A stretch of DNA of 18,220 bases from Octopus sinensis (Eukaryota), in assembly GCF_006345805.1 (NCBI RefSeq), contig NW_021824551.1:1-18220 (forward strand). Reading direction: 5' to 3'. The notes beneath the pieces were generated by a model. That model worked only from the letters and a program-made list of their open reading frames with translations, was not told where the DNA came from and searched no databases. The number at the start of each line of letters is the position of its first letter. The stretch's first letter is position 1. A program made the position numbers and the translations under genes. This document shows positions 1,457-15,972 of this stretch, piece after piece.

Positions 1457-1765
1457 ATATAATATGTGACAATTATTCGGTTGCCATAATCAGATTCCGA
1501 GTTTTGGATATCGGAGCGGAAAATTGTTCCGGCATCTCGTCAGTTTTAAGACTAACAAAAATGCTATGAAAATAACCGTTAAACAAAGGGAAAGTACTAT
1601 ATAAATGACCGTTATTAAGACGAACAAAAGAGCTATTAGAATGATCGTTAAATAAAAGGAAAAAAACCTGAAGGGGAGAAAGTAAAAAAACGCTCATAGA
1701 ATTCGCGTAAGCGCGCATGTACATACATATGCAAGCGCGCACGCACACCCACGTACATGTGCCTA
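1457..1765 (-). repeat. Inverted pseudo-LTR (left arm), with a degenerate hammerhead motif at ~1490-1547
   Basis: Reverse complement of 3072-3366 (e.g. ATATGTGACAATTATTCGGTTGCCATAAT vs ATTATGGCAACCGAATAATTGTCACATAT). The hammerhead core here reads CTGACGA...CAAAAC...ATC, so GAAA is mutated. Confidence 0.92.
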
Positions 1766-2679
1766 GCATAGCTACAGATATCAATCTGACGGTTGTCAAT
1801 TTATAGGAAGCCCAACGATAGACTTAGTTATAATGTAGGCCCCTGCCATCCCCCAACAGTGTTTAAAAATTTAGTTAAAAACATTAGCAAAAGAAATTCT
1901 AGCCTCCCCTCCGATAAGGACATTTTTAATAATGATGCCCCAGTATATAATAATGCTCTAAAAAATAGTGGATTTAGCGAGGAAATAACCTATACACCCA
2001 CCACCAGTCCAATAATAAAGAAAAGGAAACATAGGAATAGGAAAACTATCTGGTTTACACCCCCCTACTCCCCTGAAGTGATCTTTAATAGAGGTAAGTA
2101 TCTCTTATCACTTATAGATAGACATTTTTCAATCAATCATAGTTACAGAAAGCTCATCAATAGACATAACTTAAAAATCAGTTTTAGCTCAACTACTAAT
2201 TTTAAAAAGATAATCGCACACAACATACAAAAACAACAAAATGAAACCGGCTGTTCATGCAAGGATAAAAATTTGTGCCCGCTAAATGGAGCTTGCATGT
2301 CCGAGACCATGATTTATGAAGTCACCGTAGACTCTACAATCACTAAGGACATAGTTTAGTCAAAGAAATATGTGGGTCTGACAGAGGGGAATTTTAAAGC
2401 CAGGTTCAACAATCACACCTTAAGCTGCAGACACTGGGATAAAAGAAAAACAACCAAATTATCCAGTCATATATGGTACTTAAAAGAAAAAGGTGTCAAT
2501 TACAACATCCATTGGAAGATCTTAGCCAAGTGTAAGCCTTACACCAACGGCAGTGGAAAGTGTAGTCATTGTGATATGGAAAGAGGGCTCATCTGGAAAG
2601 GCAGCTTAAACTCCGTACATGTTTAAATTCAAGAACTGAACTTTTTGGATCATGTCCATATATAGCAAAATATTTGTAA
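1766..2679 (+). pseudogene. Penelope-like ORF remnant: RT thumb/linker, Cys motif and GIY-YIG endonuclease
   Basis: Motifs YRKPND..HPP, IWFTPPYS, CSC..CPLNGAC, MIYEVTV...*SKKYVGLTEGNFKARFNNH, LSSHIWYLK, CSHCDME. In-frame TAG at 2357-2359. A frameshift near 2600-2620 restores the tail CLNSRTELFGSCPYIAKYL* (stop 2677-2679). The RT catalytic core is absent. Confidence 0.9.
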
Positions 2680-3071
2680 CGTTTTTGGTCCCCGCAAGAT
2701 CACAGACAGAACATGTTTTTTATATTGTGTCCATGTACAAGCATTTTATCCCTCTATATTTATATATATATATATTTTTTTTTACATATTTTTATATATA
2801 TATTTATATATTTTTATTGCTTTATATATTTTTTACATATTTTTTCTCTATATTACCTTTCACCCTTCATTTTTTGTGCATGTGCGTATATAGACGTGTA
2901 TATGAATATAACTGTGCGCGTATGGGTATGTGTACGTGTGTGTGTGCGAGTGCTTGTGTACGGATATGTATATGTGTACATGTGTATGGTTGCATATATA
3001 TGTGTACATAAAGGCGTGTGTGAGGGTGTGCATGTATGTGTTTCACGCGAGTATGAGTGAGCATGTGCATA

Positions 3072-3366
3072 TAGGCACATGTACGTGGGTGTGCGTGCGT
3101 GTATGTGTGTTTATGTATATGCGCGCATACGCGAATTCTATAAACGTTCTTTACTTTCTCCCCTTCGGGTTTTTTCCTTTTATTTAATAGCTCTTTTTTT
3201 TGTCTTAATAACGGTCATTTACATAGTAATTTCCCTTTGTTTAACGGTAATTTTCATACCATTTTTGTTTGTCTTAAAACTGACGAGACGCCGGAGCAGT
3301 TCCCCGCCCCGACATCCGAAACTCGGAGTCTTATTATGGCAACCGAATAATTGTCACATATTATAT
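3072..3366 (+). repeat. Pseudo-LTR (right arm) of the Penelope-like element
   Basis: Inverted match to 1457-1765, downstream of the ORF stop and a (TA)/(TG)-rich 3' region. Confidence 0.92.
3276..3335 (+). ncRNA. Type I hammerhead ribozyme motif in the pLTR
   Basis: CTGACGA (3280-3286), imperfect helix II GACGCCGGAGC/GCCCCGACATC, GAAA (3318-3321), palindromic helix III ACTC-G-GAGT, GTC triplet (3328-3330). Helix I is weak. Confidence 0.7.
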
Positions 3367-4676: not shown

Positions 4677-5070
4677 GCGAGGCGAGCTAGCAGAATCGTT
4701 AGTACGCTGGGCGAAATGCTTAGTGGTATTTCGTCCGCCGCTGCGTTCTGAGTTCAAATTCCGCCGAGGTCGACCTTGCCTTTCATCCTTTCGGGGTCGA
4801 TTAAATAAGTACCAGTTACGCACTGGAGTCGATATAATCGACTTAATCCGTTTGTCTGTCCTTGTTTGTACCCTCTGTGTGTAGACCTTGTGGGCAGTAA
4901 AGAAATGGGTATGTCGTTCATTTTTACGTTCTGAGTTCAAATTCTATCAACGTCGACATTGCTTTTCATCCTTTAGGACTCGATAAAATACGTATCAGTT
5001 AAGTACTAGGGTCGATGTAATTGACGTACTCCCTCCTCCAAAATTGCTATCCTTATGCCAAAATTTGAAG
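4677..5070 (+). mobile_element. SINE family A dimer (unit 1 with Tx1-like tail to ~4906; unit 2 with alternative tail)
   Basis: A box TAGCAGAATCGTT, B box GAGTTCAAATTCC, central GCCTTTCATCCTTTCGGGGTCGAT..AAGTACCAG (resembles the Meta/MESC domain, from recall). The second unit restarts at GGTATGTCG. Confidence 0.88.
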
Positions 5071-5359
5071 GCATTATCTAATATTCATTTTAATTCGTTT
5101 GTGTATGTGCACGAAAAGGACGGTTAATGATAGGTTCCTTTTAATAACTGAAAACACCCTCAGCCGAGACCCTGGCTGTGTCCATGTATTACGACTGATT
5201 CAATCGATTACATCGACATTTATTTCCGGCAAAAATTAGCCTAGTGCATGGTGAAAAATAATTAGTACGTAAAAACAACACGTAATGAAAGCTGTAGAAC
5301 CAATTTCAAAACGAGGTTGTTTCTTCTGTCAGATAAAAATATATTACTTCTGTATGTGT

Positions 5360-8095: not shown

Positions 8096-8175
8096 GAAAG
8101 TAACAACGTGAGGCCGAGCATATTTTTGTTAGAACGCTATGGGTAAAGCACACACACACATAAACCAGTTATATT

Positions 8176-8730
8176 ATTTTCTACTCTTGGTACAAGGCCT
8201 GAAATTCAGGGGGAGGGGTTCCAGTCGATTAGATCGACCCCATTACGCAACTGGTACTTAATTTATAGACTCCGAAAGGATGAAAGGCAAAGTCGACCTC
8301 GGCGAAATTTGAACTCAGAACGTAAAGTCAGACGAAATACCTATTTCTTTACTACCCACAAGGGGCTAAACATAGAGTGGACAAACAAGGACAGACAAAG
8401 GGATTAAGTCGATTACATCGACCCCGAAAGGATGAAAGGCAAAGTCGACCTCGGTGGAATTTGAACTCACAACGTAACGGCAGGCGAAATACCAATTTAT
8501 TTACTACCCACAAGGGGCTAAACATAGAATGGACAAACAAGGATAGACAAAGGGATTAAGTCGATTACATCGACCTCAGTGCGTAACTGGTATTTAATTT
8601 ATCGATCCCGAAAGGATGAAAGGCAAAGTCGACCTCGGTGGAATTTGAACTCAGAACGTAACGGTAGACGAAATACCGCTAAGCATTTCACCCGGCGTGC
8701 TAACGTTTCTGCCAGCTCGCCGCCTTGAAC
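8176..8730 (-). mobile_element. SINE family A trimer with 14-bp TSD
   Basis: Three B-box/central-domain units with junctions at ~8493 and ~8341. TSD AAACCAGTTATATT at 8162-8175 and 8731-8744. Confidence 0.92.
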
Positions 8731-8966
8731 AAACCAGTTATATTGACGCCACCATTATCAGGATCATTATGTTCATAATGATTCTTGTTGATGTTTGCAT
8801 GAAATAGCAGTAAAATCTCTTCTATGTCGCACTTTATCTGCTTAAAATATAAGGATACGAGGAGCACAGAAGTCTAGAGTTTAATAACAACATGATGGTC
8901 ACGGATAGAATGTCTTTGGTTATCGATTTCTCAATAAGATTTAGCATCGTGCTAAATCACAACAGT

Positions 8967-12731: not shown

Positions 12732-14600
12732 GTTTCTTTATTAGCCACACAGGGCTGCACACAGATAGAACAAATTACAAGGTAGAGCTTTTCTTTTGAA
12801 GGTTTAAAAAAAAAAAAAAGGAAGGGGGAGTTTCGATCAAAAGGGATCGTAAAAGGAGAGAAAGAGGACAAAAAAAGTGGGGTTAAAAAAAAGGGGGGAG
12901 AGGAAGAAAAAAAAGAGAAAAAAAAAATTGATCAATAGGGATCGTTATCACAGAAATGTCAATATGAAGTGTAAAGGGGAGGACAGGTGAGGTTTACCCG
13001 TGGAAAGAAAAGCCTACGGAAAAGACCACGGTAACCTCGGTCAATGGAGTCACATGTTATATTTCTTTTTTTTTTTTTTTGCAAATAAGCAACTCTCTGT
13101 TTTCAATTTCTGGGTTCATAGGATCATGCTCAAGGTGGCTTCGTCATTCATACGTGCCATTCTTGCTACATTCACCCATCTTTTTTTAAAACATTCGCTA
13201 GACAATACTTGCCTCTCTACTCTCACTTTCCTTTTCAAGTGGTACTTGAAGAAGTTGATGAGAGATTGACCAGAGAGGAAAGTGTTTGTCTCCAATCCTT
13301 TCAGACGCGTCCACCAGATACATTCTTTCGCCATAGCCACAAGGATGATGAAAATAGCTCTTCCTTCCCGTTTGAAGGAGGGAGGCGTGACAATATTAAC
13401 GATAGACTCAGCTGATAAACCGACTCGTCCCACACGTGACAGCAGTTGTTCGACATAAGCCCACAGGTCGGAAATTGTTGGACACTGCACGAGTGCGTGC
13501 AGAACGGTTCGTCGCTCTGACCGCATCTCGGCAGGTCGGCCCCGTGTTTCTCGAGCCGTGTCTGTAGAGCTTATCCCGAACGGGTAGCGCTTCTCGTAGC
13601 ACTGCCAGGCCAGGGATCTCTGGAAGTTGTCCATGGGCCCTGGCCCGAAAGTCGTCCTGAACAGGCGGGTCAGGTACTCCTCGTCGACGTCCAGGTTCGC
13701 CCCGAGCTCGTCGTCGTACCTCCCCTCCACTAAACCCCTATAGAATGCTTTGGTTGTGTTGAAGTCACTCAAGGTCGACCCAGGACGGCAGAGTTGCTTG
13801 AGAGCAACGCGACACTCGCGGTGCCATTCGCCCTTCTTCGGCCTCTTTTTGATCCACGACTGCAGTTCGGTCATGGAGACGAGCTGCGGGAAAGCGTGCC
13901 TCACAAACGGCGACCACACCTGTTCACCGTCGTCTACATAGAGCCAGAGATGTCGCAGTCTCAGCGCGTGTCTGCGCATCATCAACCACGGCATGCCCAG
14001 CCCTCCTTTTAACGGGTGTTGACAGCAAATGGATTGCCTGACCATCGGGACGCATCCTTTCCACAAGAAGCGAAAGAGAATGCGTTGTAGTTTGGTGATG
14101 GTAGGGTCGGGACAAGGTACGACGGTCAGGCGGTAGTAGATGACGGACGCGATGTACGTGTTCGCCACCTCCGCCCGACCTTTTAGGGACAGTTTCCTCT
14201 CGGCCCATTGCCGGGCGAGAGTGACCACCCTACTCGTTATCTCGTTCCAGTTCTTCTCCACTTGGAGGTCCGGACCAAACCAGACCCCGAGCAACTCAAC
14301 CGGGCCGTCGGTCCAGCGTCCCACGGCATGGACGGCATGGGCTTGCTTCTCCAGATGCCTAGTCGCAAGCCCACTGACTTTTCCCGGTTGATTTTCGCTC
14401 CTGTCACCGCTTCGTAGTTTTTCAGTGTCTCGCCGACCCGCTCGATGTGCTCGTGGCTAGACACTATGACGGTGACGTCGTCCGCGTATGCAGACACGCT
14501 CGTCCCGCATCCCAGTTCTCGCGGGATGCCTCTCAAGGTTGCCAGCTTCCGCAATAATGGCTCGAGAGTCAATACGTATAGAAGCGCCGAGAGGGGGCAT
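12732..14600 (-). mobile_element. 5'-truncated L1/Tx1-clade LINE inserted in (GATA)n
   Basis: RT 3' half plus CCHC knuckle and a ~380-bp T-rich 3' UTR ending AATAAAGAAAC directly into (TATC)n. Truncated at the QG|CPLS RT motif. Confidence 0.92.
13116..14599 (-). pseudogene. Tx1/L1-type ORF2 remnant (RT motifs CPLS to YADD, thumb, C-terminal zinc knuckle)
   Basis: Motifs [65 protein letters not shown]. Frameshift near 14325-14335 and three 1-bp deletions within 13505-13600. Confidence 0.92.
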
Positions 14601-14820: not shown

Positions 14821-14900
14821 GTTTCTTTATTGGCCACACAGGGCTGCACACAGATGGGACAAGTTACAAGGTAGATAGATAGATAGATAGATAGATAGAT

Positions 14901-15607: not shown

Positions 15608-15972
15608 ATTTTAGCACAAGGCCAGCAAGTTCGAGCAAGGGGGCTAGTCGACTACATCTATAGCAGTACTCAATTGGTACTTCTTTAATCGACTCGGAAG
15701 GGATGAAAGGCAAAGACGGTCTCGGCAGAATTTTAACTCAGAACGTAAAGACTGACGAAATTCTTTATTTCTTTATTGCCCACAAGGGGCTAAACATAGA
15801 GGGGACAGACAAAAAGATTAAGTCGATTACATCGACCCCAGTGCGTAATTGGTACTTAATTTATCGACCACGAAGGGATGAAAGGCAAAGTCGACCTCAG
15901 AACGTAAAGACAGACGAAATTCCGCTAAGCTTTTTGCCCGGTACGCTACTGATTCTACCAGCTCGTCGCCTT
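15608..15972 (-). mobile_element. SINE family A dimer
   Basis: Head at 15972, Tx1-like tail ending ~15765, second unit with alternative tail to ~15608. Confidence 0.88.

Follow-up and report, generated by a model that had tools for sequence, protein, structure and literature searches.

A LINE-derived 3' tail on an octopus SINE and its probable partner, a Tx1-type family that inserts into the SINE's own head

Retrotransposons of the L1 group are thought to rely mostly on poly(A). In the stringent SINE/LINE pairs of L2, CR1 and RTE, by contrast with that expectation for L1, the two partners have in common a 3' tail and a stem-loop, the latter recognised by ORF2 (PMC3747384, PMC4176376; accessible portions); the octopus elements described here likewise have a tail and a stem-loop in common, and recognition in octopus is something we infer. 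The accessible part of the SINE/LINE pair table in PMC3747384 contains no Tx1 partner and three SINEs with L1-clade tails, from plants and an alga. Maize ZmSINE2/3 with LINE1-1_ZM and Chlamydomonas SINEX-3 with L1-1_CR resemble the octopus case in their L1-group 3' hairpin, its compensatory changes and its sharing by a SINE, and differ from it in being plant and algal systems for which the available text of PMC3472496 and PMC3747384 describes no target specificity of the SINE.

A second parallel is provided by the crocodilian SINEU elements and Tx1-Mar (PMC4494074, in the part accessible): there, as here, use of a Tx1 element was inferred from a common target preference, sequential insertion gives rise to tandem copies, and the target is another transposon. 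The two systems diverge in that no LINE with the 3' end of SINEU-1 was found, whereas the octopus element that we call SINE A shares a LINE tail, and in that SINEU heads derive from snRNAs and the target is a Mariner element, whereas in octopus the target is the SINE itself. Kibi, Koshi, Keno and Tx1-Mar are APE elements that insert specifically into microsatellites, small RNA genes or transposons (PMC4494074, PMC4640811), and target-specific APE elements belong to the Tx1 or R1 clades (PMC4640811; both sources in their available sections). The octopod LINE clade described below, with (TATC)n, (ATT)n and repeats as its targets, is like them, except that two of its families, B and G, target SINE heads. 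Among open papers, as far as their accessible text extends, we found no description of a partner of SINE A, of a Tx1-tailed SINE or of a SINE-head-specific LINE, and a prior account in Repbase, Dfam or SINEBase is quite possible; an octopus repeat annotation (PMC13282606, in part) has L1-Tx1 families and leaves SINEs mostly unclassified, and SINE A may be one of the families named in the 1994 octopus SINE paper. Tail sharing between SINEs and LINEs is thus known; a Tx1-type partner with a common tail, and a partner targeting the SINE itself, are the new elements.

The features of the window, by which we mean the whole stretch of 18,220 nucleotides analysed (Octopus sinensis, contig NW_021824551.1), are collected in Table 1; the family letters (A, A2, B, C, E, G, H, I and J, with SINE A and SINE B) are labels coined in the present analysis. 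The window also includes a broken Penelope-like fragment (1457-3366; weak GIY-YIG match at 2360-2623, E 0.0025) lying between inverted arms, 1457-1638 and 3185-3366, that are 91% complementary.

Table 1. Coordinates of SINE and LINE features in the window
Feature	Position	Strand	Remarks
Young LINE-type 3' tail of SINE A	15766..15814	-	copy without ~10 nt of the tail's 5' half
4-bp hairpin, 5-nt loop, CCC/GGG stem (stem type as in families G and I)	15778..15790	-	
SINE A unit: head, body (16-nt internal deletion), young tail	15766..15972	-	
Head site targeted by LINE family G	15908..15923	-	rare base common to the site copy after the tail (~15749-15764)
5'-truncated SINE A unit, beginning at the G target site, older tail type	15610..15764	-	
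SINE A array: head, two young-tail units (8494-8541, 8344-8390), older-tail unit	8176..8725	-	
SINE A array: head, body, young tail (~4850-4907), older-tail unit from the G site	4678..5075	+	
LINE family A copy, 5'-truncated (frameshifted RT C-terminal part, 3' UTR)	12733..14600	-	(TATC)n on both sides
Family A 3' hairpin, 6-nt loop	12743..12756	-	
Isolated 50-nt 3' end of a family A subfamily	14822..14872	-	inside (TATC)n / (GATA)n

An initial annotation of this DNA had proposed that the SINE A tail at 15768-15807 is homologous to a LINE terminus at 14822-14861, with an ungapped identity of 33/40. We recovered the same count, and the best of 2,000 dinucleotide shuffles of the 40-mer, run against the whole window on both strands, reached 26/40. 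Without its terminal 10 nt the tail still matches the LINE end at 23/30 (shuffle maximum 22/30), so that the signal is not limited to the A-rich end and the excess over shuffled controls is present at both lengths. The other LINE terminus, at 12733, gave 30/40 with the same tail. Further tails that had been reported at ~4860-4906, 8344-8390 and 8494-8541 each align to both LINE ends, and the hairpins described in SINE and LINE are both there (Table 1). Of the window tails, only the copy at 15768 has the exact AATAAAGAAA end, the other three having AGT there. Two details required revision. The terminus at 14822 is a separate 5'-truncated LINE 3' end of 50 nt, the long fragment ending at 12733, and the outer stem pair of this isolated end is an A.C mismatch. 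The shared region, secondly, runs to ~56 nt, beyond the 40 nt first claimed, and its 5' half has a better match in other LINE families than in the window's LINE.

SINE A, at ~230 nt, has the attributes of a SINE: it is short, non-coding, high-copy, interspersed and accompanied by target-site duplications. A 22-mer of its tail has 28,376 exact matches in the genome, and 52 stretches of 10 kb at fixed coordinates of the 2.72-Gb genome, 520 kb in all, contained 48 copies of body plus young tail, giving an estimate of ~250,000 copies genome-wide. Duplications of at least 10 nt starting directly after the young tail accompany 37 of 67 monomers with unique flanks, compared with 1-5 when flanks are swapped. 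Their presence at monomers marks the young tail as the genuine 3' terminus of a SINE subfamily and rules out that it is merely internal to a SINE dimer. Head and body are common to copies with young and older tails, and body divergence is 6.2% in the former (n = 73) and 15.5% in the latter (n = 46), indicating that tail replacement ran from old to young; the tail swap put forward earlier is thereby upheld, a LINE-derived terminal tail having taken over from an older one. Bivalve CORE, V and Meta SINEs similarly combine a constant head and body with exchanged tails, their partners being, unlike in octopus, CR1, CR1-Zenon, L2 and Nimb (PMC4824008, PMC11481361, PMC4758252; available portions); the accessible text of PMC11481361 mentions neither Tx1 nor cephalopods.

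In the SINE A head ARAGORN detected no tRNA and Rfam returned no tRNA match; A- and B-box-like motifs were recognised there by eye, against the usual box consensus. RNA-seq reads match the SINE equally on both strands and most continue into other sequence, a pattern that makes Pol III transcripts inseparable from SINE copies embedded in other RNA. The SINE stretch is present in sequencing runs of several organisms, with the young tail covered in one (organism D), and the young tail is likely to predate some species splits. Older tails in the window (8176-8215, 5030-5075 and 15610-15640) form a hairpin with an identical 5-nt loop and a GGC/GCC stem, whose outer pair is A-T or T-A according to subfamily, and older tails frequently terminate in (ATT)n, as families E and H do. 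Older and young tails may come from the same LINE clade; the similarity of the older ones to LINE ends is weak, family E being best at p ~0.007, uncorrected for six tests.

Long family A copies encode an ORF2 of ~1150 aa in which Pfam identifies an APE endonuclease, an RT and a zf-RVT, and the set of APE, RT and C-terminal zinc domain was found for families A and B alike. The best PDB match of the LINE ORF2 is human L1 ORF2p (E 3e-53; R2, 2e-20), the closest named homologue of the window LINE's ORF2 is from Argonauta hians, and an Atlas search retrieved generic RT clusters only. Genome searches and sampled stretches revealed sister families of A with ORF2 identities of about 55-70%, the ORF2 of family G being 56-59% identical to those of A and B; in a quick tree, A, B, G and J fall with the Argonauta protein and one further protein in a single clade (SH-aLRT 100). 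The ORF1 of family B contains a zf-CCHC, and the ORF1 of G is 41% identical to it over 236 aa. A CCHC knuckle in ORF1 is a feature of the Tx1 clade. Because APE domain, CCHC ORF1 and target specificity all point to Tx1, the octopod clade is likely to be an APE-RT lineage of the L1/Tx1 group and of Tx1 type; the earlier description of the tail as belonging to the Tx1 clade accordingly agrees with domain structure and targeting. Protein searches yielded none named Tx1, and the tree, built without such references, speaks to the unity of the octopod clade only.

All families of the clade follow one 3' plan, consisting of a pyrimidine tract, a 4-bp hairpin and an A-rich end, and their fixed targets accord with the site-specific enzyme that had been suspected. 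Thus (TATC)n follows family A in 66 of 73 ends and A2 in 16 of 19, and (ATT)n follows family E in 23 of 27 ends and H in 3 of 3; one flank count of target specificity left out 8 of 70 rows with an unresolved end. Family B targets the head of a different SINE, SINE B, in 29/29 young and 29/33 older copies, with a 12-bp duplication in the two full-length copies read. An example lies at locus G000:C8, 2900-8400, and B target sites occur in the window near 1223 and 5521. Many B subfamilies retain the SINE B target, and B constitutes a second SINE-targeting lineage, sister to G/J.

The young tail of SINE A is homologous to the 3' ends of this Tx1-type clade, SINE terminus to LINE terminus, as in stringent SINE/LINE pairs. 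The majority tail scores 37/46 against A, 39/44 against A2, 47/55 against C, 40/54 against E and, in its 5' half, 29/30 against B, exceeding all 1,000 shuffles for each of six families tested. The tail's 5' 26 nt match families B and C at up to 26/26 and G at 15/26, and the hairpin half matches G, I and A2. Over the last 33 nt of the window tail G agrees at 30 positions, and no other of the 10 families compared has so high a median; over the tail's 40 nt, A2 surpasses G (medians 35 and 31). The hairpin of family I is identical to that of SINE A, and the best whole-tail match, up to 53/56, belongs to the non-autonomous family C. Closer sister families of the kind suspected as the tail's source do exist, none of the autonomous ones being near-identical over the whole tail: no single LINE in the sampled genome matches all 56 nt, and 104 pattern matches (~44 loci examined) and 20 ORF1-led regions contained no autonomous family with both tail halves. 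A search for an autonomous parent of family C gave none and turned up family G.

Family C is HAL1-like: ORF1-like matches occur in 14 of 30 loci, and an ORF2 C-terminus adjoins the tail in 0 of 30 (1.5 kb upstream). It shares with the half-L1 elements HAL1 (PMC5786205, in part) the combination of ORF1 and 3' tail without ORF2, and comes from the octopod clade. One short motif recurs after 20 of 27 C ends, which suggests that C has its own target site. Families I and J share ~66% identity with G at the C-terminus and lie next to varied flanking sequence; the stem of J is TCC/GGA, and three of its seven copies precede one and the same repeat.

These comparisons make the window's own LINE family, or its subfamily A2, a barely credible partner. 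A is abundant, and A2 leads over the window tail's 40 nt; yet the (TATC)n that follows nearly all A and A2 ends follows 2 of 165 SINE copies and 0 of 48 sampled ones, which speaks against the partnership with this LINE as initially envisaged. Family A moreover differs in its 6-nt loop and GCC/GGC stem, has no counterpart to the tail's 5' half, and is of more recent date than the majority of SINE copies. A search for a family A variant with a SINE-like tail gave 29 matches, all of them point variants of A.

Compensatory changes of the kind foreseen for the hairpin were observed. Across 24 natural ends aligned without editing (23 of them distinct, and mutually related), 89% of cells keep the stem paired and 14 double changes occur; slid controls gave 13-47%, and 0 of 500 shuffles were as high, a figure that is not a probability since the rows are related. 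Pairing reaches 96% in the 14 of 24 rows chosen by their 5-nt loop, where one pair is C-G in seven rows and G-C in seven. In a comparison by family restricted to intact-core copies, and hence unconstrained only at the outer pair, that pair is broken in A2, which counts against the reading that the stem is recognised. With related rows and a stem of 4 bp, the covariation supports a stem without proving it.

Family G combines an ORF1 of 520 aa and an ORF2 of 1134 aa, intact in many copies, with 158 exact 3' ends, and its stem is the CCC/GGG stem of SINE A. Upstream of full-length G copies lies a SINE A head in 4 of 4 cases, with a 16-bp site duplication, and a fixed site of the SINE A head directly follows young G copies in 32 of 32. 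The site also comes next in 17 of the 20 older G-like copies that retain a tail of their own, the other three forming a 72-73% subfamily (5 of 70 rows without a resolved end and 3 without their own tail were left out). Each G insertion is in a different SINE copy. Transduction of SINE units 3' of G is ruled out, as the downstream units differ. The SINE tail adjoins this head site too, and in matching register, in 12 of the 48 sampled copies, exact SINE tail/G-site junctions number 26,908 genome-wide (chance ~6e-5), and in all three window arrays the SINE tail is followed by the G site. Median divergence is 0% for young G copies (n = 32), 7.7% for older ones (range 4-16%, n = 17) and 6.5% for SINE A monomers (quartiles 4.4-9.8%, n = 75); the overlap between older G and SINE A indicates concurrent activity, on a rough measure from mixed subfamilies.

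Taken together, this makes it probable that the SINE captured its tail from the Tx1-type clade and owes its mobilisation mainly to family G, which targets the SINE's own head. Tail homology, terminal position, hairpin covariation, the specificity of G, the junction site common to G and SINE, and overlapping ages are the observations on which we base this reading. Recognition of the SINE RNA, and its mobilisation by G, are likely on the strength of these sequence comparisons. Several results pull the other way. That no LINE matches all 56 nt counts against G as sole tail source and partner; the lead of A2 over G in the window tail's 40 nt and the identical hairpin of family I count against the partnership with G, as does the rarity of very young SINE monomers, 1 of 75 lying within 2% of the majority though young G copies are near 0%.

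Tandem SINE units at the G site form 184-bp arrays, and these admit another history, which we regard as improbable: a LINE-derived tail, with the arrays descending from one founder junction through multimer transcripts or DNA duplication and with no ongoing preference for heads, agreement with G's site merely recording how the founder was made. Direct repeats that enclose whole arrays would be expected on this account, and 14-bp repeats (8162-8175 and 8731-8744, by eye) do enclose the window array at 8176..8725. So would near-identical neighbours, and adjacent units are at most 2% apart in 8 of 50 pairs, compared with 0 of 388 between arrays; adjacent units being closer than random pairs, some arrays are local duplications or multimer copies. 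A test for nested insertion by shared rare variants was negative (2/49 in the 16-bp site, 13/190 downstream, P = 0.74), with low power if targets were young when hit; in the window's 15768 array one rare site base is common to both site copies. The near-identical neighbours and the negative test count against nested insertion by G. A tandem array of an 88-bp deleted SINE unit, comprising target site and tail, in >25 copies (G000:C26:18220666-18223585), is a junction-born satellite and also suits a founder. Half of adjacent pairs, however, are at least 6.7% apart, overlapping the between-array range (medians 6.7% and 9.7%), and in arrays of young and old units the downstream older-tail unit is usually the more diverged, such units coming from several different subfamilies.

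Outside SINE heads lie 33 of 48 sampled SINE copies, which, given the near-strict specificity of G for the head site, counts against G as partner. The first target bases at such places vary with the tail: T-type tails have GGT/GAT in 26 cases and AGA in 0, C-type tails GGT/GAT in 1 and AGA in 13 (P = 1e-9). At the head site the first base is G in 36/36 SINE junctions and is divided 16 G/16 C after family G, and intact heads vary. Both patterns are consistent with steering by RNA; different enzymes for different SINE subfamilies would also explain the tail-linked bases. A second junction hot spot, at SINE head position ~15 near the A box (3 of 48 copies; 8710 in the window), involves mainly C-type tails and is seen in RNA-seq reads; a search there for a LINE gave 164 pattern matches, no LINE is so far known for it, and this site, too, counts against the partnership with G.

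The dispersed copies bear on a further alternative, which we consider unlikely. The tail would stem from an extinct or unfound family with a 5' half like B/C and a hairpin like G/I, perhaps the parent of C, and several families of the clade would mobilise the SINE, G accounting for the in-head insertions only and the less specific I or J for the dispersed ones. The whole-tail match to C, the identical hairpin of family I together with its varied flanks, the dispersal of most SINE copies and the existence of three junction types all argue for such promiscuity, while dispersed T-type duplications begin with GGT/GAT, as G's own site does, and the search described above brought to light no autonomous family with both halves of the tail.

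If family G is the main partner, its ORF2 would recognise the pyrimidine tract, hairpin and A-rich end, and the SINE transcript would run a few bases past the tail, with the extra bases pairing with the nicked target. SINE copies would then land back in SINE heads or at short look-alike sites elsewhere; in heads, the 5' junction would be seamless through the SINE's own sequence and would yield the 184-bp arrays. Capture of the tail may have occurred through a template switch: reverse transcription, begun on a LINE 3' end at the head site, would have passed to SINE RNA, an event that at G's site would leave head, body and LINE tail in front of what remained of the old SINE. More tentatively, and at somewhat less than even confidence, we propose a closed parasite loop: the LINE targets the promoter region of the SINE, the SINE with its captured tail spreads by its attacker's enzyme to become one of the genome's most frequent repeats, and read-through bases retarget insertion, including to the second site.

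Should the partnership hold, it would mean a target-specific LINE of the L1/Tx1 group with stringent hairpin recognition in an animal, and would point to a likely driver of part of the expansion of SINEs in octopus. The parasite loop, if true, would be the first case of a Tx1-type element with a SINE partner that shares its tail, and a natural instance of RNA-steered site choice in target-primed reverse transcription. The octopod clade offers a test set of related enzymes, about 57-70% identical, with one tail fold and with (TATC)n, (ATT)n and two SINE heads as targets, and this set, together with its intact young copies, could separate endonuclease specificity from RNA-guided site choice.
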